A DNA stretch of 64,000 nt from an uncultured Candidatus Berkelbacteria bacterium (GTDB lineage: Bacteria > Patescibacteriota > UBA1384 > XYA2-FULL-43-10 > CAINNR01): NCBI GenBank assembly GCA_903851235.1, contig CAINNR010000032.1, forward strand, positions 25 through 64,024, written 5' to 3'. This document shows positions 9,514 to 63,016 of the stretch, piece after piece; within the stretch, counting starts at the first letter, position 1, and every line of letters starts with the position of its first letter. Position numbers and translations under genes: made by a program. The notes beneath the pieces are model-generated. The model made no database searches. It worked only from the letters and a program-made list of their open reading frames with translations, and was not told the DNA's origin.

Positions 9514-10326
9514 TTAATTCTTTGGGATTGAATCTTCCGAGAACCAAATTTCGTGATTTTTATCAAAGTAGAACTCTTTTACTGCCGGTTCGGCGTTGTT
9601 TTTGACGTACTCCGGGTCAACGTCAAATATCTTATTTTTCTCTCTCACTACTTTATTCCAGTATATTCGGTTTTTAATTTTTCCCCTGTCAGATGAATTA
9701 GTTGTTTGGGCTTTGTGCATCGTAAATTGCGACAGAGCAATATTTTTGCAACAAAATTTGAAGCCGGCGCTTTGCGCTCGTAACCACAAATCCCAATCCT
9801 CACCGATTTTTATATTTTCATCATAACCACCGAGTTTATCAAAAACGTATTTATAGTAGGCGGATGATCCGGCGTGGGCGATATAGTTAATATATTTTAG
9901 CATTACGGGATCATATGGCTGAAAATGCCGGAGTGTTCTTTCGCCGGTTTCGGGGTAAAATCTCTCTAAATTGGCGTAAAAAATATCGGCTTTGTTTTTT
10001 TCAAGTTCCGCCACACTGACCTCGGCCCGATTTGGGAAATTCGGATCGTCGGCATCAACGGGAAAAATTATTTCGCCACTGGCAACCCGTGTTCCTAAAT
10101 TTCTCGCTGCTGCGACGCCGGATTTATTTTCCGGGCTTTTGAGAGTGATTAAATTCGGATGACTCCCCACCATCGTTTTTAGAATCTCTGGAGTCCTGTC
10201 ACTACTGTGATCATCAACAACAATTACTTCAAGATTCTGATAATTTTGATTTAGAATTGAATTAATGGTATTCTCAAGGAAATACTCACCATCTTTTACT
10301 GCCAGAACGAATGAAACTTTTTTCAT
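9514..10326 (-). CDS. Glycosyltransferase family 2.
   Basis: 'VIVVDDHSSDRTPEIL' and 'DADD' (the DxD motif). Confidence 0.8.
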   Translation of the reverse strand: MKKVSFVLAVKDGEYFLENTINSILNQNYQNLEVIVVDDHSSDRTPEILKTMVGSHPNLITLKSPENKSGVAAARNLGTRVASGEIIFPVDADDPNFPNRAEVSVAELEKNKADIFYANLERFYPETGERTLRHFQPYDPVMLKYINYIAHAGSSAYYKYVFDKLGGYDENIKIGEDWDLWLRAQSAGFKFCCKNIALSQFTMHKAQTTNSSDRGKIKNRIYWNKVVREKNKIFDVDPEYVKNNAEPAVKEFYFDKNHEIWFSEDSIPKN

Positions 10327-10417: not shown

Positions 10418-11182
10418 ATGTCAGAGCCGAAAATTAGCTATATTATTGCCACTCGCGACAGGGCTGATTTGATTGGGGAAACCATCTTATCTTTAATTCA
10501 ACAGGACGAAGCTGATTGGGAAGCGATCATTGTTGACGATCATGGAACCGACAAGACGGAGGAGATAATCAAGAATTTTCATGATCAAAGGTTAGTCTAT
10601 CTCAAACTCGGTGATTCAAATGGTAGGGGTGCCAGTTGCGCCAGAAATTTGGCGGCGATTTGGGCCAAAGCTCCTATTATTGCGATTACTGATTCTGATG
10701 ATATTTTATATCCGAACCGAACTTCAGAGACGCTAAAAGCCTTTAGGGACAACCCTGAGATTGAGGTTTTTTATTCAGATTTTGATATCTGGGATGTTGC
10801 AAGTGGTGAAGTTCGAAGCCGCAAAACTCCGGTTTCGGATTATTCATTTGAAAAAATGAAAGCTGATCATTTTATTCCGCACATTACGGTTGCAATGAAA
10901 AAACAGCTTTTACTTGATAACCCTTATAACCAATACTTTCGGATGGCCGAAGATTACGACATTTTGTCACGACTAGCTGTTCAAGGAAGAAAATTTTATT
11001 TTTGCAAGAAAAAGTTGATGAAATATCGCCTCGGAATAAACAATATGTCGATTGGTAAGGAAAGAAAAACCATTGTCGATCTATACGGACAAATGGCAAA
11101 AATGGCTCGAGGCTTTATTCCATTTGGTTTGGAAGTGGCAAAACAAATTCAAGAATTTGAAAATCAAAGGAGCAAAAAATGA
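10418..11182 (+). CDS. Glycosyltransferase family 2.
   Basis: 'IIVDDHGTDKTEEI' and 'ITDSDD'. Start moved to the ATG that follows the GAGGTG SD (MSEPKISY...). Confidence 0.8.
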   Translation: MSEPKISYIIATRDRADLIGETILSLIQQDEADWEAIIVDDHGTDKTEEIIKNFHDQRLVYLKLGDSNGRGASCARNLAAIWAKAPIIAITDSDDILYPNRTSETLKAFRDNPEIEVFYSDFDIWDVASGEVRSRKTPVSDYSFEKMKADHFIPHITVAMKKQLLLDNPYNQYFRMAEDYDILSRLAVQGRKFYFCKKKLMKYRLGINNMSIGKERKTIVDLYGQMAKMARGFIPFGLEVAKQIQEFENQRSKK

Positions 11183-28974: not shown

Positions 28975-29050
28975 GAACTCGTAGCTCAGATGGTAGAGCA
29001 GGGGATTCTTAATCCCAAGGTCGAGGGTTCGACCCCCTCCGAGTTTGCCA
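28975..29050 (+). tRNA. tRNA-Lys (anticodon CTT).
   Basis: Manual cloverleaf: acceptor gaactcg/cgagttt, anticodon loop ttCTTaa, T-arm gaggg-ttcgacc-ccctc, encoded CCA. Confidence 0.8.
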
Positions 29051-29255
29051 TCTTAGGGGCAGCCATACATGGTTTGCCCTTTTTTATAACAAGAAAAACC
29101 CATGTCCGTGGGAATGGGGTAAATGATATAGATGCGGCGTAGGCGTAAGTCCGGTTTATCTTATTGCAATAATTTTCCTCAAAACGGAAAATTTCCATTG
29201 CCATATTGACAAATTAATAGTAATTTGCTATACTGTCTTGACAGTGAATGGTGGT

Positions 29256-29340
29256 GCCGGAGTGGCGGAATGGCAGACGCAGGGGACTTAAAATCCCCCG
29301 TCCTCTGGGCGTGAGGGTTCGAGTCCCTCCTCCGGTACCA
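29256..29340 (+). tRNA. tRNA-Leu (anticodon TAA), with a long variable arm.
   Basis: Anticodon loop ctTAAaa, long variable arm, T-arm gaggg-ttcgagt-ccctc, CCA. Confidence 0.8.
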
Positions 29341-29350
29341 ACTTCGTGGT

Positions 29351-29426
29351 GCGCCTGTAGCTCAGCTGGTAGAGCAGCGGACTTTTAATCCGTTGGTCGC
29401 TGGTTCGAATCCAGCCAGGTGCACCA
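29351..29426 (+). tRNA. tRNA-Lys (anticodon TTT).
   Basis: Anticodon loop ctTTTaa, T-arm gctgg-ttcgaat-ccagc, CCA. Confidence 0.8.
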
Positions 29427-29430
29427 AAGC

Positions 29431-29506
29431 GTGCTTGTAGCTCAGTGGATAGAGCAGCGGCCTTCTAAGCCGTTGGTCGGCGGTTCGAATCCGCCCGAGC
29501 ACGCCA
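29431..29506 (+). tRNA. tRNA-Arg (anticodon TCT).
   Basis: Anticodon loop ctTCTaa, T-arm ggcgg-ttcgaat-ccgcc, CCA. Confidence 0.8.
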
Positions 29507-37337: not shown

Positions 37338-37413
37338 GGGGTCGTAGTGTAGTGGTTATCACGTCTCCCTGTCACGGAGAAGATCGCCGGTTCGAGTCCG
37401 GTCGACCCCGCCA
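37338..37413 (+). tRNA. tRNA-Asp (anticodon GTC). It marks the left boundary of the cassette array.
   Basis: Acceptor ggggtcg/cgacccc, anticodon stem-loop tctcc-ctGTCac-ggaga, T-arm ccggt-tcgagtc-cggt, discriminator g, CCA. A TTGAAT-17-TAAAGT promoter lies upstream. Confidence 0.85.
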
Positions 37414-37476
37414 TTAAAATTAGTCGCTATCAGAGCGTCTTTTTTTGTATCAGGCAGACCGGATGCAGAACTTTTG
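37411..37476 (+). repeat. Boundary element E0: the tRNA-Asp 3' end, its downstream hairpin, T-tract and the right inverted repeat. This is the template that every later boundary element copies.
   Basis: ccattaaaattagtcgctatcagagcgtctttttttgtatcaggcagaccggatgcagaacttttg. Confidence 0.75.
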
Positions 37477-37525
37477 TATTTCTGAATACTAATCAGGTTT
37501 CATTTTATTGCATTGATCTCTAAGT

Positions 37526-38273: not shown

Positions 38274-38370
38274 CAAAAAAGTTCTAACATCGTTCGCTAT
38301 TTCCCGCCAGCAAACCGAATGATGTTAGAACTATTCGGTTTAATCGCTCTAGAAGCGATTTTTTTGTTGT
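38274..38370 (+). repeat. Boundary element E1: perfect 11-bp inverted repeats, a tRNA-3' mimic and a terminator.
   Basis: caaaaaaGTTCTAACATC-gttcgctatttcccgcca-...GATGTTAGAAC, then aatcgctctagaagcgattttttt. Confidence 0.8.
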
Positions 38371-38462: not shown

Positions 38463-38723
38463 ATGACCACTCAGAAGGAGACTGACATGACACTGCTTGA
38501 GTTCGTGAAGATGTTGGGGACGATCATGATCCGTGCGATCTTTGACGTTGTCCGGCCTCTCTCGCCGATCATCGGCGCGTTGGCCTTGATTGGGTTCGTC
38601 GTCGAGATCGTCCGGCACCATAGTACATCGTGGGAGCTTGCGCTGTCAGCGTTAGCCCTTGGCGCCATGGCTTACCTGACGCGGCGGCCTGAGCTGCGCG
38701 GGTACACAATGTTCCCGAATTGA
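38463..38723 (+). CDS. Cassette 2: small GC-rich membrane protein, hypothetical.
   Basis: MTTQKETDMTLLEF..., two predicted TM helices. Terminator at 38782-38826. Confidence 0.5.
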   Translation: MTTQKETDMTLLEFVKMLGTIMIRAIFDVVRPLSPIIGALALIGFVVEIVRHHSTSWELALSALALGAMAYLTRRPELRGYTMFPN

Positions 38724-39744: not shown

Positions 39745-41175
39745 CTATGCCGAGGTGGCATGGGAATTGATCGTGTCATAGAGATTGTCGACCTTGCACT
39801 TGAAGAGGCCGGGGTCCTCTGTTAGTATCCACATCAGCTCAAGTACAGAGTCATGGATCTCCTCGCACTTGAAATGAGGCGAACGCAGGTCTCTCGTGGT
39901 CTGATAGTTCTCTCCTCGACAGTTGCCGGCACAGATATACCTGATATCGCAAGCCGCGCATTTTGGATTCATACTATCGATGTTCAGACTGCGAAGATCC
40001 GTCAGAATGGGGGATCCCTTCCAGATCTCAGCCAAACTATCGGTTTTCAGATTGCCCAGGCAGAAATCGGGGACCGCAGTATCGGCGCATGGGTACAGTG
40101 TGCCGTCCGGTTTAACGTAAACCGCTCGATTCGTACCGATTCCACAGCCGAAGCTTTTGACGCCTCCTGCGATTCCCATCACTTGGTTTGCGAAGGTCGA
40201 GTACATCATCAACTGCTGAAGTCGCTGATCATCTCGTATTGCTTCGAAAACCTTCCGGTAGAAATCCGCCAAAGGGACAGCAACGAGTTGTTGCTTCGTT
40301 TCGGCGCTGTTGCCTCGGCCTACATTCATCATGTTTAAACAGTTAAGGCCTTGGACTCCAAGAGAATCGACCAACTTGAGTGTTGGTCGGACCTCATCGA
40401 TATTGCCTGCGTGAATAAACATGTTGACGGCAACTGAGATCCCTGCGTCGCACAGTGCCTTGATGTTGTTGACTGTTGTAGTGAATGTTCCCTCTCCACG
40501 GATGTATTCGTGGCTCTCAGCCCGACATCCGTCAAGGGAAATCGACATTTTCAGCCGGGGATATTTCGCCAGTTGTTTGATATCTGCTGGCGCCAACAGA
40601 GTCGCATTGGTGTTCACTTGAGCGAAATAGCCATGGTTGTGAACATATTCAATCAGATCCATGGCATCGGGGCGGGTAAACAGCTCACCGCCGGTTAGGG
40701 CAACGCGCGATATGCCGTTTTCCCAGGGCATACTCGAAAGTTGATCGATAACTGCTTTGATTTCGACAGAAGTCATCTCGCCGGGGATCTTCTCTTTGGC
40801 CATGGCATAACACATTGCGCATTCCATGTTGCAGAGTTGAGTTGTGGCGATAACCAAGACATTTTCGACTTCATTGACTTGGAAATCCGGCTTATTCTCT
40901 TCGACATCAACCTTCTCACCATCTACTACCAGCACTCCAGCGGAGTGCAGCAGATCGATAGTTTCAGCGACGATGTCGCCAGCCTCCTCTGCTGAGAGTC
41001 CCAATTGGGTTCTGATCTTAGTGACAGCCACATCAGAGTTTCCACAAGCCAACGACTCAAGGATGAGGGCAATCTCCGCCGTTGCAGAGAACCAGTAGGG
41101 TGCTGAGGGAAAGATCACGACTGCTGATTCTTCCCTGAAATAGACCGATGGTTTTTCGGTGAATGCCAACTGCAT
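39745..41175 (-). CDS. Cassette 4: radical SAM enzyme with a C-terminal SPASM domain and a ~110-aa N-terminal extension (a possible RiPP recognition element). Likely a peptide-modifying maturase. GC-rich.
   Basis: 'CNMECAMC' (CxxxCxxC) and C-terminal 'CAACDIRYICAGNCRGENY'. RBS GGGAGA lies before ATG at 41175. Confidence 0.8.
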   Translation of the reverse strand: MQLAFTEKPSVYFREESAVVIFPSAPYWFSATAEIALILESLACGNSDVAVTKIRTQLGLSAEEAGDIVAETIDLLHSAGVLVVDGEKVDVEENKPDFQVNEVENVLVIATTQLCNMECAMCYAMAKEKIPGEMTSVEIKAVIDQLSSMPWENGISRVALTGGELFTRPDAMDLIEYVHNHGYFAQVNTNATLLAPADIKQLAKYPRLKMSISLDGCRAESHEYIRGEGTFTTTVNNIKALCDAGISVAVNMFIHAGNIDEVRPTLKLVDSLGVQGLNCLNMMNVGRGNSAETKQQLVAVPLADFYRKVFEAIRDDQRLQQLMMYSTFANQVMGIAGGVKSFGCGIGTNRAVYVKPDGTLYPCADTAVPDFCLGNLKTDSLAEIWKGSPILTDLRSLNIDSMNPKCAACDIRYICAGNCRGENYQTTRDLRSPHFKCEEIHDSVLELMWILTEDPGLFKCKVDNLYDTINSHATSA

Positions 41176-41198
41176 TTCGGTCTCCCTTCAAAAAAGAT

Positions 41199-41226
41199 CA
41201 GTGAGGCGCGCTCGCGCGCCTCACTG
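41199..41226 (-). terminator. Attenuator/terminator hairpin between the precursor peptide gene and the maturase.
   Basis: Perfect 12-bp stem cagtgaggcgcg-cgag-cgcgcctcactg followed by a U-tract on the minus strand. Confidence 0.6.
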
Positions 41227-41239
41227 TTGTTACGTGGAG

Positions 41240-41332
41240 CTACTGGCCCCGGTAGTACATCGTCCCTTGTGACTCCTTAGTCAAGACGACGATACGACGA
41301 TTGCCACGGTTCAAAATCCGAAACTTCCGCAT
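41240..41332 (-). CDS. 30-aa candidate RiPP precursor peptide (MRKFRILNRGNRRIVVLTKESQGTMYYRGQ). It is not in the supplied ORF track.
   Basis: A strong SD (AGGAGGagcgtcATG) and a TTGACA promoter on the minus strand at ~41408. It lies directly upstream of the radical-SAM/SPASM gene and is separated from it by an attenuator hairpin. Confidence 0.55.
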   Translation of the reverse strand: MRKFRILNRGNRRIVVLTKESQGTMYYRGQ

Positions 41333-41478
41333 GACGCTCCTCCTGTCAGATGGTGTAAGCTGTCGAAACAGCTTCACTATTATTATTAACATACTTTTTT
41401 TACTTTTGTCAACAGCATCGAGTAAATCTGATAACTTTATGAGGATATTTTTATTAATTTTTATGCTAAAATTTGATT

Positions 41479-42414: not shown

Positions 42415-42756
42415 ATGAAAACAATCGAAGACAAAATAAGTATCAAAGATTTGCAGGAGATGGCAGAAAAGATGTTCGGCAATTTGGTTAAAGCGGTAAT
42501 TGACATAGAGAAAGAGGCGATGGTCGTTGACGCCGAGCTTTATTCAGACGAGGAAGCGGTTCTAATTGAAAACGGATCAAAACAAAAAGATCTTTGGGGA
42601 ATAAATATCTATCCAAATTTACCCAAAGCCGACCAAATTGAATTTGATTCAATGATTAATTTGCGACCAAAACAGAACAACAGAAGCCGGAGTGTTGATG
42701 ATCCAAAAATCAGAGAAATAATACTAAAAATTTGTGATAAATTAATCAAACAATGA
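42415..42756 (+). CDS. Cassette 6a: hypothetical protein, first gene of a two-gene cassette; leaderless.
   Basis: 113 aa. TTGACA-17-TAGACT promoter with the ATG six nt after the -10. Confidence 0.5.
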   Translation: MKTIEDKISIKDLQEMAEKMFGNLVKAVIDIEKEAMVVDAELYSDEEAVLIENGSKQKDLWGINIYPNLPKADQIEFDSMINLRPKQNNRSRSVDDPKIREIILKICDKLIKQ

Positions 42757-43082
42757 CATATGAACATCAAAATTTGGCCGAAGGCAAGTGGAATAAAATT
42801 CCATTTTTTGAGCAGATGGCTAATATCGGAAGTGAGGTTTTTCGCACAATCAGTTGGAAGAAAAAAAACATTGATTATTCAAATAAAGCTTTTGACAGAA
42901 CTCTCGAACTACTGGATATGACGATTGAAGATTCTAAAAATCGAGGACGACTAAAAGAATTAGTTCGTTTGCGTGAAGTCCTGACCGATTATTTTGTCTT
43001 TGACAATGAGTACAAATCAAATGATGAATTATGGCAGAAGTATTTTTACGCGTTCAATTATGTCGCTAGAATAAATTGTTAG
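42753..43082 (+). CDS. Cassette 6b: hypothetical protein, start overlapping 6a (ATGA).
   Basis: 109 aa, translationally coupled to 6a. Confidence 0.5.
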   Translation: MTYEHQNLAEGKWNKIPFFEQMANIGSEVFRTISWKKKNIDYSNKAFDRTLELLDMTIEDSKNRGRLKELVRLREVLTDYFVFDNEYKSNDELWQKYFYAFNYVARINC

Positions 43083-44709: not shown

Positions 44710-44738
44710 TTGACTTTTGAGTCTGAATATGATATTAT
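44710..44738 (+). promoter_or_regulatory. Promoter of cassette 9, followed by a ~185-nt structured leader.
   Basis: TTGACT, 17 nt, TATTAT. The leader contains several hairpins and a strong SD (aaGGAGGcgtttaggATG). Confidence 0.5.
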
Positions 44739-44929
44739 ATAGTAATCTCAGAATAAGCTGATGGGTATCGAATTTCTGGCGTAAATTAAGACAAATATAG
44801 GCACGAGAGTCTTTAAAACTTGTTTTTTAGAGATTCTCCCGCCTGTATAGGCGGCTATCACATAGCTGGGGTACTTTCATCCTCTACCCCTGAAGCCTAG
44901 AGCTTAAAGCTACAAAGGAGGCGTTTAGG

Positions 44930-45460
44930 ATGAACGCCAGCAAAGTGATTAGAATGCAGTTGACCAAAAGAAGGCTTCCGGCCGTGTGGGAGCGCGGCGG
45001 TTACACTGGCATCAGTATTGACAGTGAGCCAGTGGGTATTGGGATCGTCTGGGCTAACCCGGATGGTATGCCCTATCGCCCATATTTCATTCAGGACACC
45101 GAACCGAACGACCAGCAGGCATTGGTTCCTGTCGAGAACGGGAGCTGGATGGTCGTTGCGAGACAGTGGCATCCTGGTAGATTCAACTATGAGGTCTGCC
45201 AGGTTACCGATGTTCGCACCGATCCAGACTCGTACGGCTTGTCTTTGAGTGAAGTGTTTCAGATGACCGATGGTGAGCCAGACTATCAGTGGCGTCATGA
45301 ATGGCTCAGCTGTTGGTCTCAACAGAAGTCGCACGGCCACCCTCAATCCGTGATCTCAGCCGTACCCATCACACTGAAGGCGGCTATCGACGCCGCCCTG
45401 GCCAAATGCCAGTGCCCGGGTTGCAGGGAAGCACACTATGTGCTGCCTCGCAAGAAGTAG
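44930..45460 (+). CDS. Cassette 9: GC-rich hypothetical protein.
   Basis: 176 aa with a strong SD and no family recognised. Confidence 0.55.
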   Translation: MNASKVIRMQLTKRRLPAVWERGGYTGISIDSEPVGIGIVWANPDGMPYRPYFIQDTEPNDQQALVPVENGSWMVVARQWHPGRFNYEVCQVTDVRTDPDSYGLSLSEVFQMTDGEPDYQWRHEWLSCWSQQKSHGHPQSVISAVPITLKAAIDAALAKCQCPGCREAHYVLPRKK

Positions 45461-45498
45461 CAACAACAAGGAGGACGGACATCAGTTGTTCGTCTTCC

Positions 45499-45549
45499 CC
45501 CTCAACACATTAAGTGTTCTGATGAGTCGTTGAAATTACGACGAAAGGG
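45499..45549 (+). ncRNA. Hammerhead ribozyme (type III, open helix III), copy 1.
   Basis: CCCU-C|AACAC-auuaa-GUGUU-CUGAUGA-G-UCG-uugaaauua-CGA-C-GAAA-GGG. All core nucleotides are present. Helix I is a 5-bp hairpin, helix II is 4 bp closed by the conserved G10.1-C11.1 pair, and helix III is CCCU/AGGG. The predicted cleavage is after C at 45503. Confidence 0.75.
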
Positions 45550-45554
45550 ATAAA

Positions 45555-45653
45555 CAAAATAGTTCTAACTCCCTTCGCTATGCTCCGCCATTAAAAATAG
45601 TCGCTCTAGAAGCGATTATTTTTCTATGTGATAGACAGGATGTAAAACTTTTG
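45555..45653 (+). repeat. Boundary element E9.
   Basis: caaaatagttctaactcccttcgctatgctccgccattaaaaatagtcgctctagaagcgattatttttctatgtgatagacaggatgtaaaacttttg. Confidence 0.8.
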
Positions 45654-46077: not shown

Positions 46078-46160
46078 GTTACTCCGACGACAGGTGTAAA
46101 GATCACCACCTAGCTGTAACAGGCTGGTGGTTTTTGTTTTAGACAGCGAAATTCTTGAAA

Positions 46161-46232
46161 CAAAATGTTCCAACTTCCTCTGCTGTCTACTGCCAATAAA
46201 TTAGTCTCTGATAGAGAGTCTTTTTTTGTGTA
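46161..46232 (+). repeat. Degenerate boundary element E10.
   Basis: aaatgttccaacttcctctgctgtctactgccaataaattagtctctgatagagagtctttttttgtgtact. Confidence 0.5.
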
Positions 46233-47609: not shown

Positions 47610-47638
47610 TTGACATTATGTAAATAATTTAGTATAGT
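47610..47638 (+). promoter_or_regulatory. Consensus promoter of cassette 14.
   Basis: TTGACA, 17 nt, TATAGT. The leader has an SD (cGGAGGcacaagATG). Confidence 0.6.
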
Positions 47639-47679: not shown

Positions 47680-47913
47680 ATGACACTCGGACTCATACTG
47701 CTGGTCGCTGGAGTTATTGCATTTTTGGTAGGATTTGCCATTGCAGCGAACAACATGGCTTCAGTCGCCAAGAACCCTGACGACATGCTTGACAGCCAGA
47801 ACAACCCGTTCGTGAAGCATCTTGGCGCCATGGTAGTCATGGCCTTCGGTGGTGGTAGCGCGCTCATCGGCCTTGTCCTAATCGTCATTGCGCTGGTCGG
47901 CAAACACGCGTAG
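47680..47913 (+). CDS. Cassette 14: small GC-rich two-TM membrane protein.
   Basis: 77 aa, MTLGLILLVAGVIAFLVGFAIAA... Confidence 0.55.
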   Translation: MTLGLILLVAGVIAFLVGFAIAANNMASVAKNPDDMLDSQNNPFVKHLGAMVVMAFGGGSALIGLVLIVIALVGKHA

Positions 47914-47966
47914 TAAGCACAACAACAGAGGGGATTCACTAAGAGGGTACGAAGTTGTACTCTCCC

Positions 47967-48017
47967 CCCTCAACATTAAATTGTTCTGATGAGTCGTTGA
48001 AAATTACGACGAAAGGG
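47967..48017 (+). ncRNA. Hammerhead ribozyme (type III), copy 2.
   Basis: CCCU-C|AACA-uuaaau-UGUU-CUGAUGA-G-UCG-uugaaaauua-CGA-C-GAAA-GGG. Helix I is 4 bp; in copy 1 a compensatory change makes it 5 bp. Confidence 0.75.
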
Positions 48018-48021
48018 ATAA

Positions 48022-48112
48022 ACAAATAGTTCTATCATCCTCCATTACCTCTTACCATGAAAAAGTAGCCTTGGAAGCTATTTTTTTGTATATGGCAGAC
48101 CGAATGTAGAAC
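48022..48112 (+). repeat. Boundary element E14.
   Basis: caaatagttctatcatcctccattacctcttaccatgaaaaagtagccttggaagctatttttttgtatatggcagaccgaatgtagaacg. Confidence 0.8.
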
Positions 48113-48136
48113 GTCTGTCCTTCTAGGCTCACAACT

Positions 48137-48165
48137 ATTGACACACTTGGCACTTTTTGTTATAG
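48137..48165 (+). promoter_or_regulatory. Perfect-consensus promoter of cassette 15, duplicated at 62890-62918.
   Basis: aactaTTGACA-cacttggcactttttgt-TATAGT-gatttgcgaagac. The 46-bp segment 48133-48178 is almost identical to 62886-62931. Confidence 0.7.
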
Positions 48166-48196
48166 TGATTTGCGAAGACAGAATCCTGAAAGGATG

Positions 48197-48712
48197 TGTT
48201 TGTTTATGTCCTGCGGATGTCCGAGACCGTTGCTACTAGATGTTGATCTGCCGTTTCTGATCGAGACCGTCTTACCCCACGTGCTGGCCGAGGTTGCCAG
48301 AGTCAGCGACATGCGAGATCGAGAGGGTGGCATGTTCGTGTTGATGCGAGCCGTCACCGGCGAGATCATCGTCGGCCCGAAGCAGGTCGGCCAGATTAAC
48401 AACGGTAAGGAAGATAAGTACGCCGAGTTCGCTCAGGAGAAACCGGTTCGGCTCCTCGAACACCCAGATCACTGTCTGAGCTGGGAGAGTCGAGATCCGG
48501 ACAACAACAAGTGGGGTGGCGCCGTCAATGATGGCCTCTTCGTCTGGTCCTTCTCCGGACTCTCGGAGGAACAGGACGAAGCGCTCGTGCTGATGGCATC
48601 CCATCTCTGCGGCCGCATTCGCAACGGCGACCCCAAGGCAATGGCAGAGATTTCCAATAACAGAATCATCATCGACAATCCCTACCTCTTCTGGTGTCCT
48701 CGGGAGAGTTAG
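48197..48712 (+). CDS. Cassette 15: GC-rich hypothetical protein.
   Basis: About 170 aa (MCLFMSCGCPRPLLLDV...). The start is ambiguous between ATGs at 48197 and 48209; the track uses TTG at 48170. Confidence 0.5.
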   Translation, partial: CLFMSCGCPRPLLLDVDLPFLIETVLPHVLAEVARVSDMRDREGGMFVLMRAVTGEIIVGPKQVGQINNGKEDKYAEFAQEKPVRLLEHPDHCLSWESRDPDNNKWGGAVNDGLFVWSFSGLSEEQDEALVLMASHLCGRIRNGDPKAMAEISNNRIIIDNPYLFWCPRES

Positions 48713-48762
48713 AGTGTCGGCGACACGGGGACTTACCCAAATGGGCACGACCTGTGCCCATT

Positions 48763-48813
48763 CCCTCAACATTAAATTGTTCTGATGAGTCGTTGAAAAT
48801 TACGACGAAAGGG
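48763..48813 (+). ncRNA. Hammerhead ribozyme (type III), copy 3.
   Basis: CCCU-C|AACA-uuaaau-UGUU-CUGAUGA-G-UCG-uugaaaauua-CGA-C-GAAA-GGG. It is preceded by the terminator-like hairpin gggcac-gacct-gtgccc. Confidence 0.75.
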
Positions 48814-48818
48814 ATGAG

Positions 48819-48918
48819 CAAATTGTTCTAGCTTACTACGCTATCTTCCGCCAATAAAAATAGTCGTTCTACGAGAGGTTATTTTTTTGTATATTGCGGA
48901 CCGGATGCAGAACTTTTG
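48819..48918 (+). repeat. Boundary element E15.
   Basis: caaattgttctagcttactacgctatcttccgccaataaaaatagtcgttctacgagaggttatttttttgtatattgcggaccggatgcagaacttttg. Confidence 0.8.
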
Positions 48919-49282: not shown

Positions 49283-49354
49283 CGCGACTTGCGACCCACC
49301 ACCTAGCCATATCAGGCTGGTGGTTTTTGTTTTATCGGCCAAAATTATCGAGGC

Positions 49355-49400
49355 AAAAAAATTCTAACTTCCTAGTTGATCTCCGACAATGAAAAATCGC
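49355..49400 (+). repeat. Degenerate boundary element E16 (left half).
   Basis: aaaaaaattctaacttcctagttgatctccgacaatgaaaaat. Confidence 0.45.
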
Positions 49401-62794: not shown

Positions 62795-62873
62795 CCTACT
62801 GCGCTTTGCTATTGAATTTTATTTTCTTCTAGAGCGTCTTTTTTTGTGTCTGGCAGACTGGATGCAAAACTTT
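62795..62873 (+). repeat. Boundary element E26.
   Basis: ctactgcgctttgctattgaattttattttcttctagagcgtctttttttgtgtctggcagactggatgcaaaacttttt. Confidence 0.7.
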
Positions 62874-62889
62874 TTCTTTTCCTAAACTA

Positions 62890-62918
62890 TTGACATGCTA
62901 GGCACTTTTTGTTATAGT
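62890..62918 (+). promoter_or_regulatory. Second copy of the perfect-consensus promoter (see 48137-48165).
   Basis: aactaTTGACA-tgctaggcactttttgt-TATAGT-gatttgcgaagac. Confidence 0.7.
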
Positions 62919-63016
62919 GATTTGCGAAGACGAACACCAACACGGGAGGCTTGAAAATGCCATTGGCAAAAGGACTTATAACTAAGCGTGGTGGCTCGCC
63001 GGTATCAGTATAAGAA

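Follow-up and report, generated by a model that had tools for sequence, protein, structure and literature searches.

Type III hammerhead motifs beside attC-like cassette boundaries in a tRNA-Asp-anchored array of a Patescibacteria chromosome

Bacterial hammerhead ribozymes are found by the hundreds in the vicinity of integrases and prophages (Perreault et al. 2011, PMC3088659); multiple copies often flank individual genes and may process long transcripts into gene-length mRNAs. Such flanking arrangements cleave transcripts of about 2 kb, including polycistronic RNA, in vitro, and one arrangement does so in vivo (PMC3088659). The present work concerns three hammerhead motifs in a stretch of 64,000 nucleotides from an uncultured Candidatus Berkelbacteria bacterium (contig CAINNR010000032.1), referred to in its entirety as the window. 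Each motif follows the open reading frame (ORF) of a small gene cassette and precedes a repeated, attC-like boundary element. Judged by their sequences, the three elements are genuine type III hammerhead motifs. As functional ribozymes, they would probably be part of a reusable 3' end module of self-transcribed mobile cassettes, trimming the mRNA to a hairpin-protected and context-independent 3' end.

The type III hammerheads of phages and prophages (Rfam family RF00008) share the catalytic core and the three-helix topology of the window copies. Prophage clusters also resemble the window in comprising several copies within a few kb, which flank single small genes in horizontally acquired DNA. 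In contrast, the window copies are found in a Patescibacteria chromosome, in a fixed register with an attC-like boundary and nearly always abutting a stem-loop. Whereas prophage hammerheads split a polycistron, the cassettes of the window are transcription units of their own, and the ribozyme would trim the 3' untranslated region (UTR). Several viral contigs were also observed to carry two to four hammerheads within a few kb. Because gene-flanking hammerhead clusters are known from prophages (PMC3088659), the general phenomenon is less new than an earlier note on this DNA had implied. The same note knew of no established link between hammerheads and cassette boundaries, and this was supported: the literature searched yielded no paper connecting hammerheads with Patescibacteria or with the boundaries of integrons or cassettes. 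Both the ribozyme class and the general idea are thus already known, while the cassette-boundary setting in a bacterium of the candidate phyla radiation (CPR) appears undescribed.

Integrons and clusters of attC sites lacking integron-integrases (CALINs) resemble the window array in their tandem single-ORF cassettes, mostly in one orientation, in their imperfect palindromes of 55–100 nt and in the prevalence of orphan ORFs. The window array differs in starting at the 3' end of a tRNA-Asp gene and not at an attI site beside intI and a common promoter (Pc). No integrase was found within the 64 kb; neither an integrase nor a reverse transcriptase gave a Pfam match in the 40 window ORFs scanned, and an integrase could lie elsewhere in the genome. 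A further difference is that integron cassettes are mostly promoterless and served by the common Pc, whereas most of those in the window have their own promoter-like sites, and their boundaries hold the tRNA end CCGCCA together with an intrinsic terminator. Ribozymes in attC contexts are unreported in the literature searched. The term integron-like, which the earlier note used for the boundaries, thus holds for the architecture of the array only: with its tRNA-Asp anchor, the individual promoters of most cassettes and no integrase found in the window, the array fails several integron-defining features.

Two further systems show more limited resemblance. In T4-type phages, repeated modules of a promoter and a terminator stem-loop (promoter early stem-loop elements, PeSLs) flank small orphan ORFs in a hyperplastic region and appear to mediate modular shuffling (PMC2839356, PMC4122927). 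These elements act by homologous recombination between repeats and without a ribozyme, whereas the window repeats are chromosomal palindromes with a relationship to a tRNA end; the resemblance is one of description alone, and no homology is claimed. Ribozyme insulators such as RiboJ are engineered devices of the 5' UTR, in which a ribozyme of hammerhead type and a hairpin make transcript ends independent of context. The arrangement in the window is natural and located in the 3' UTR, and its likeness to such insulators is purely functional.

The hammerhead motifs and their 3' module

All three window copies can be read as CCCU-C/AACA..UGUU-CUGAUGA-GUCGU..ACGAC-GAA-AGGG, where the slash marks the cleavage site. 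The layout is CCCU (positions 16.4–16.1), C17, helix I, CUGAUGA, helix II with the loop UGAAA(A)UU, GAA and AGGG (positions 15.1–15.4). The core nucleotides C3–A9, G12–A14 and C17 were intact in every copy, as were the core-adjacent pairs A15.1-U16.1 (A-U), 10.1-11.1 (G-C) and 1.1-2.1 (A-U). The sequences are exactly as they had been described earlier, that is, three complete motifs with an intact core and the G10.1-C11.1 pair. Helices I and II are closed by loops and helix III is open, and the RF00008 alignment ran from end to end (model positions 1–54 of 54). E-values of 2e-6 to 4e-4 were obtained in a search of 6 kb; when the whole 64 kb window was searched with all 4227 Rfam families, they were 2.4e-5, 4.7e-3 and 4.4e-4 for hammerheads 1, 2 and 3, respectively. 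The core pattern CTGATGAG..CGAAA occurred three times in the window, compared to 0.05 occurrences expected from shuffled sequences.

Copy 1 has the helix I hairpin AACAC-AUUAA-GUGUU; in copies 2 and 3 it reads AACA(U)-UAAA-(U)UGUU. Compensatory covariation of this helix among the window copies had been claimed; the variation consists of a C-G pair in copy 1 versus a U.U mismatch in copies 2 and 3, with no pair-to-pair change, and the claim was overstated. Because copies 2 and 3 are moreover identical across the motif, with copy 1 differing little, the window by itself provides little evolutionary evidence. At physiological Mg2+, hammerhead activity depends on a tertiary contact of loop I with loop II. 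In the window copies loop II resembles the Rfam consensus, loop I is A/U-rich, and no specific contact between loops I and II was demonstrable. Folding of single copies recovered the three-way junction only roughly. No degenerate hammerheads were detected at the other window boundaries, where an unfiltered covariance model (CM) search gave nothing above 11 bits, and no other ribozyme classes or known RNA families were found at boundaries at E ≤ 1 (Rfam, whole window).

Each hammerhead lies on the coding strand, following the ORF and preceding the terminator of the boundary, and keeps a fixed register with the boundary repeat. The gaps between stop codon and motif are 38, 53 and 50 nt for hammerheads 1, 2 and 3, respectively, and those between motif and boundary are 10–11 nt, measured up to AGTTCTA (TGTTCTA at the third site). 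Behind three ORFs the same order was thus observed: a hairpin without a U-tract, the hammerhead, an A-rich spacer of 10–11 nt and the boundary. Repeat family D6 spans 98 nt, from the hammerhead up to and including the left boundary arm. The hairpin had been taken for a terminator following the ORF, but since the U-tract is absent, it is not a canonical intrinsic terminator. Including relatives from other contigs, a stable stem-loop was present 0–2 nt before the 5' strand of helix III in 10–11 of 12 instances (−11 to −22 kcal/mol, z = −2.8 to −7.0). These 10–11 stem-loops differ in sequence and none has a U-tract; a comparable abutting hairpin was found in only about 5 of 16 type III hammerheads of phages.

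Seven GC-rich cassettes were compared in the slot before the boundary. In four of them, whose ORFs end at 38723, 44503, 46077 and 49282, the slot holds a hairpin with a U-tract terminator; in the other three, with ORF ends at 45460, 47913 and 48712, it holds the hairpin with a hammerhead. A 62-nt 3' module of the terminator type is common to two unrelated cassettes (46104–46165 and 49297–49358), and a promoter/leader module (GGCACTTTTTGTTATAGTGATTTGCGAAGAC) is common to two others, one in each run of the array (48085–48183 and 62843–62935). The sharing of 5' and 3' modules indicates that the cassettes are assembled from interchangeable modules, of which the hammerhead is one 3' variant. The three window ORFs before hammerheads are unrelated to one another, so the module is shared and was not inherited with one gene.

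The cassettes measure 0.5–3 kb and contain one or two small ORFs without a recombinase domain. Many of these ORFs have a GC content of 50–60%, compared to 30–40% for the backbone, and most are orphans; for the 176-aa ORF before hammerhead 1, the homologue search gave nothing beyond the query itself. A promoter-like site on the + strand lies ahead of most + strand cassettes, at least seven of them matching at 10–11 of 12 positions. Each of the three hammerheads has such a site before it and a boundary terminator after it. The coordinates are collected in Table 1.

Table 1. Positions of the main features within the window (R1, covariance model built from eight copies)
Feature	Coordinates	Strand	Description
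Cassette ORF upstream of hammerhead 1	44930-45460	+	176 aa, GC-rich, orphan; promoter-like site 44710-44738
Stem-loop abutting helix III of hammerhead 1	45470-45498	+	no U-tract; RNAfold −18.2 kcal/mol, z = −5.6; predicted 3'-terminal hairpin of cleaved mRNA
Hammerhead 1, type III	45499-45549	+	C17 at 45503, predicted cut between 45503 and 45504; helix III CCCU/AGGG, helix I AACAC/GUGUU, helix II GUCGU/ACGAC; RF00008 40.6 bits, E 2.2e-6; R1 81.9 bits
Boundary after hammerhead 1	45561-45649	+	left arm AGTTCTAAC, CGCTAT, CCGCCA core, terminator hairpin 45598-45622 and T run, right arm GGATGTAAAACT; repeat families D1-D9, DNA fold
Cassette ORF upstream of hammerhead 2	47680-47913	+	77 aa, probably small membrane protein; promoter-like site 47610-47638, 11/12 match
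Stem-loop 2 nt upstream of helix III of hammerhead 2	47943-47964	+	−11.1 kcal/mol, z = −2.8
Hammerhead 2, type III	47967-48017	+	C17 at 47971, predicted cut between 47971 and 47972; helix I AACA/UGUU and U.U mismatch; RF00008 32.4 bits; R1 84.8 bits
Boundary after hammerhead 2	48028-48113	+	terminator 48063-48087
Cassette ORF upstream of hammerhead 3	48170-48712	+	168-180 aa, without Pfam family; promoter-like site 48138-48166, 11/12 match
Stem-loop abutting helix III of hammerhead 3	48740-48762	+	−15.1 kcal/mol, z = −4.4
Hammerhead 3, type III	48763-48813	+	C17 at 48767, predicted cut between 48767 and 48768; helix III 5 bp (UCCCU/AGGGA); RF00008 36.1 bits; R1 80.5 bits
Boundary after hammerhead 3	48824-48914	+	terminator 48861-48885
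tRNA-Asp(GTC), array anchor	37338-37410	+	3' end and flank (CCGCCATT, terminator, GGCAGACCGGATGCAGAACTTTTG, 37405-37477) homologous to right half of every boundary
Array	37411 to ~50650	+	~15 small cassettes between boundary repeats; 3 with the hairpin-plus-hammerhead 3' module

The hammerhead 1 cassette also has a 5' leader of about 190 nt (44740–44929). A short GAATTTCTGGCGTAAATTA-like stretch recurs in the leader of the hammerhead cassette in locus L140 (9800–10000), where the ORF is unrelated, and could represent a shared leader element. Two other cassettes of the array were noted. A radical SAM/SPASM enzyme of 476 aa (39745–41392, − strand), closely preceded on that strand by an ORF of 50 aa, may constitute a small cassette for a ribosomally synthesized and post-translationally modified peptide (RiPP-type). 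A DUF5674 gene and a 109-aa partner, with overlapping stop and start, form a cassette at 42415–43082 (+) and recur in L140 (12538–13148), and may be a two-gene module.

Relatives and covariation

Metagenomes were scanned with the query CTGATGAGTCG..CGACGAAA followed by GTTCTA 11–18 nt further on, for which about 0.1 chance matches are expected. Six loci were obtained, five of them distinct, all with a complete type III hammerhead and the same kind of boundary (AGTTCTAAC..CGCT..CCGCCA). These loci likewise carry the upstream hairpin, the ORFs ahead are again unrelated, and the spacing from hammerhead to left arm in relatives is 7–10 nt. In L137, two consecutive cassettes each end with a hammerhead and a boundary. 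The composite of hammerhead and GTTCTA gave zero matches in viral contigs, in which no gene of the P0011 family was found either.

The ORF upstream of the hammerhead in L138 and L140 has more than 100 homologues, and their taxon-bearing source names are all Patescibacteria, Parcubacteria or Azambacteria. The genomic contexts of seven homologues were inspected. The same hammerhead lies downstream of the homologue in L140 and L142, while L148, L150 and L153 have terminators or nothing in its place. In L144 and L152 the type III hammerheads have diverged strongly, and their helices are wholly different (helix I UCGGA/UCCGA, UCUCG/CGAGA or UCCGCC/GGCGGA; helix III CUCUGU/ACAGAG). In L152, two of them flank the gene (9842–9922 and 10904–10963), and a long helix II with an inserted hairpin is present; in L144 and in one of the L152 copies (L152b) the hammerhead is kept without a full boundary. 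The earlier note had asked whether homologous cassettes carry the same ribozyme; the composite recurs in five other metagenomic contigs, and the homologues in L140 and L142 share a hammerhead.

The type III core is kept in the eight relatives, with C or U at position 17. When scored with the family model, nine close copies reached 68–88 bits, compared to at most 11 bits for the rest of the 75 kb. The model-based alignment of the nine close copies has two-sided changes at 5 of its 15 pairs; 92.6% of the cells are paired, as opposed to 24–49% in slid registers. The wider alignment, parsed by hand and restricted to the helices, comprised 11 distinct sequences, including the eight relatives from the metagenome scan and the homologue contexts, with L144 and L152a/b among them. 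In this set, compensatory changes were found at 9 of 13 pairs, and the share of paired cells is 95.8% versus 27–56% in slid registers, so that compensatory pairing, whose failure among more homologues would have spoken against the ribozymes, was upheld. Helices I and III covary, while helix II varies only at the fourth pair. An alignment made by MAFFT mis-registered L139, which has a shorter loop I, and the CM-based and hand-parsed alignments were used instead.

These comparisons also bear on whether the hammerheads merely hitch-hike, as remnants from a phage or another mobile source that were copied between cassettes by recombination of boundary modules and have no present function. We consider this unlikely. 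The core is complete in 11 of 12 diverged copies, helices I and III stay paired through compensatory changes, the adjoining stem-loop is retained with unrelated sequences, and the other window boundaries hold no degenerate copies. Such an origin would nevertheless accommodate the near-identity of the window copies and the swap of a core-adjacent pair or the large insertion in some relatives. It would also accommodate the agreement of helix II and loop II (GUCGUUGAAAAUUACGAC) with common phage hammerheads: among the matches listed, 30 of 121 viral-contig hammerheads are identical to it and 31 more have a U-A to C-G variant. As a separate observation, the module GUCG[U/C]UGAAAAUU[A/G]CGAC is very common in IMG/VR contigs (at least loci L014–L133), in both type I and type III topologies.

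Several results weigh against functional hammerheads in a 3' module. All three window copies score below the curated RF00008 gathering score of 48.5 bits, and the relatives, with 29.6–46 bits, do so as well. The proposed check with RF00008 therefore gave a divided outcome: the three copies aligned end to end with low E-values, but none reached the gathering score, which is why default Rfam annotation reports no hammerhead. The low scores result from a short, AU-rich helix I and a 4-bp helix III; helix I has only 4–5 bp in the window, and so does helix III. Minimum free energy (MFE) folds in long context recover the hammerhead only in part, with the helix III strands finding alternative partners. 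In L137, one copy (L137b, strand-oriented 640–700) carries U-A in place of the near-invariant A15.1-U16.1 pair, and in L142 (8545–8639) loop II is lengthened by an insertion of 35 nt. Of the alignments used for covariation, one was fitted to a model and the other parsed by hand, and helix II is uninformative in the close metagenome relatives because it was fixed by the search pattern. Finally, the module occurs at only 3 of about 17 window boundaries and is thus dispensable for the array. A pairing of the 3' strand of helix III with a downstream CUCCCUU, observed in the long fold of copy 1, was dropped, as it is not conserved in the other copies.

The tRNA-Asp-anchored array and its boundaries

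The window contains about 17 attC-like imperfect palindromes, each combining a terminator with a copied tRNA end (CCGCCA), and a second run of the same boundary repeats begins at about 62100 and extends to 64000. The order within a boundary is AGTTCTAAC, N, CGCTAT, N, CCGCCA(TT), a hairpin and T run as terminator, and GGCAGACCGGATGTAGAACT, with the outer arms forming inverted repeats. Compact hairpin boundaries without the central terminator were found at 38280 and 43915. The outer boxes TTCTAAC and GTTAGAA (often GTAGAAC) each agree at 6 of 7 positions with the attC boxes RYYYAAC and GTTRRRY. The sequence is suggestive of a boundary that originated as a decayed copy of a tRNA 3' half (GTTCG ... 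CCGCCA). The right-arm pattern of the boundary gave six single matches in unrelated taxa among 185,579 species genomes, about four being expected by chance, and zero matches in viral contigs.

When folded as single-stranded DNA (ssDNA), the boundaries yielded z-scores of −2.0 to −7.5. The conserved hammerhead sequence is contiguous with this palindrome, and RNA-motif searches are known also to pick up ssDNA attC sites (Weinberg et al., PMC5737381). Both points would suit a role of the sequence as DNA, either as an extension of the attC-like site or as a protein-binding site, with an incidental hammerhead match. Such a role is very improbable: a chance match to 13 core positions and to three covarying helices in 11 distinct sequences is implausible, the motif lies outside the palindrome and takes no part in its DNA fold, and most boundaries lack it.

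Copies of the tRNA 3' end, CCGCCA(TT), are present at the end of the tRNA and at the boundaries. In the related contigs L140 and L142, the same tRNA-Asp precedes inserted cassettes that have copies of the tRNA 3' end, (C)CCGCCA, on either side. Direct repeats flanking the inserts, as in tRNA-targeting elements, were thus observed, but the integrase that such an element encodes is missing, the cassettes having no recombinase domain. Cassettes bracketed by copies of the tRNA-Asp 3' end carry the signature of site-specific integration into the tRNA 3' end. The same array was present in several samples of one metagenome series.

Hammerhead-flanked retroelements exist in eukaryotes, namely retrozymes and Penelope-like elements. 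With this precedent, RNA-mediated mobility or genesis can be considered for the cassettes, with transcripts cut out, perhaps circularised, and reverse-transcribed. Hammerheads 2 and 3 start 796 nt apart (47967 and 48763) and bracket one cassette, and pairs also occur in L137 and L152. Promoters and terminators between hammerheads 2 and 3, however, mean that a single transcript over both is not expected, and cleavage would part the ORF from the boundary that it would need. The direct repeats of the tRNA end point to site-specific integration of DNA, and no reverse transcriptase was found by Pfam in the 40 window ORFs nor in the precomputed annotations of the L140 and L142 gene calls. We regard this route as scarcely credible. 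The related proposal that the hammerheads are a relic of cassette genesis through an RNA intermediate fared no better, as neither a reverse transcriptase nor an integrase was found by Pfam in the window ORFs scanned and the ribozymes are conserved, not decayed.

Outside the array, the window encodes DnaK/DnaJ, pyruvate phosphate dikinase (PPDK), RuvB, QueA, MraW, LytR, envelope genes and many glycosyltransferases. A phage origin of the window was ruled out, since blastn against phage records returned nothing and chromosomal genes such as those for DnaK, PPDK, RuvB and MraW are present. The RuvB protein is 86–91% identical to proteins from Candidatus Berkelbacteria metagenome-assembled genomes (MAGs), which most probably places the organism in the Patescibacteria. 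Four tRNA genes are clustered upstream of dnaK (28975–29503). Over two of the clustered tRNAs (29391–29459), Rfam gives a weak match to Y RNA-like (YrlA) that stays below the gathering score (37 versus 69 bits); the tRNA-like fold probably produces it as an artefact.

Predicted 3' end formation and its meaning

Under the preferred reading, transcription would start at a sigma-70-like promoter belonging to the cassette, pass the ORF, the stem-loop and the hammerhead, and end at the terminator that the boundary contains. The hammerhead would then fold and cut after C17. The upstream product would be an mRNA ending in stem-loop-CCCUC with a 2',3'-cyclic phosphate, and the short helix III (4–5 bp) would let the products separate. 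The 3' end of this mRNA may be shielded from 3' exonucleases and would be independent of the sequence past the junction. The downstream product, about 120 nt long with a 5'-OH, would comprise the ribozyme body and the boundary as far as its terminator, with the left arm and the CCGCCA core; it would be released and probably discarded. For cassettes landing in varied contexts, the module would perform the same job as the private hairpin and U-tract terminator of neighbouring GC-rich cassettes.

The downstream RNA could alternatively be the purposeful product. With its defined 5'-OH and with the left arm AGTTCTAAC, it might act in recombination or regulation, as a guide or cofactor of a recombinase or as a mimic of a tRNA end. 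Such a fragment would end at the boundary's own terminator, the boundary contains the copy of the tRNA-Asp 3' end, and the distance from hammerhead to left arm is fixed (10–11 nt in the window, 7–10 nt in relatives). About 14 of the 17 boundaries of the same array, however, have no hammerhead, cleavage would leave the conserved stem-loop with the mRNA, and the distant relatives L144 and L152b keep the hammerhead without a full boundary. Neither a recombinase nor an RNA-binding partner was identified, and a function of this RNA is considered doubtful. Broader still is the proposal that Patescibacteria own an integron-like cassette-capture system at tRNA-Asp, with a recombinase encoded elsewhere and ribozymes as a standard, interchangeable part; the hammerhead would also release a boundary RNA, with recombination core and tRNA-end mimic, that acts in or regulates recombination. 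In this full form the proposal is quite improbable.

For 3' end formation by the hammerhead module, the setting is unusually legible: single-gene units with mapped promoter-like and terminator-like sites, an abutting stem-loop, and sister cassettes with an ordinary terminator in the same slot. A whole lineage of hammerheads from Patescibacteria lies below the Rfam gathering cut-off, so searches that apply the threshold miss it. The roles of bacterial hammerheads are still unclear (PMC3088659), and the cassette setting makes the purpose of the ribozyme directly testable as 3' end formation and context insulation. The attC-like array anchored at tRNA-Asp in these ultra-small bacteria may be a more novel object than the ribozymes themselves.

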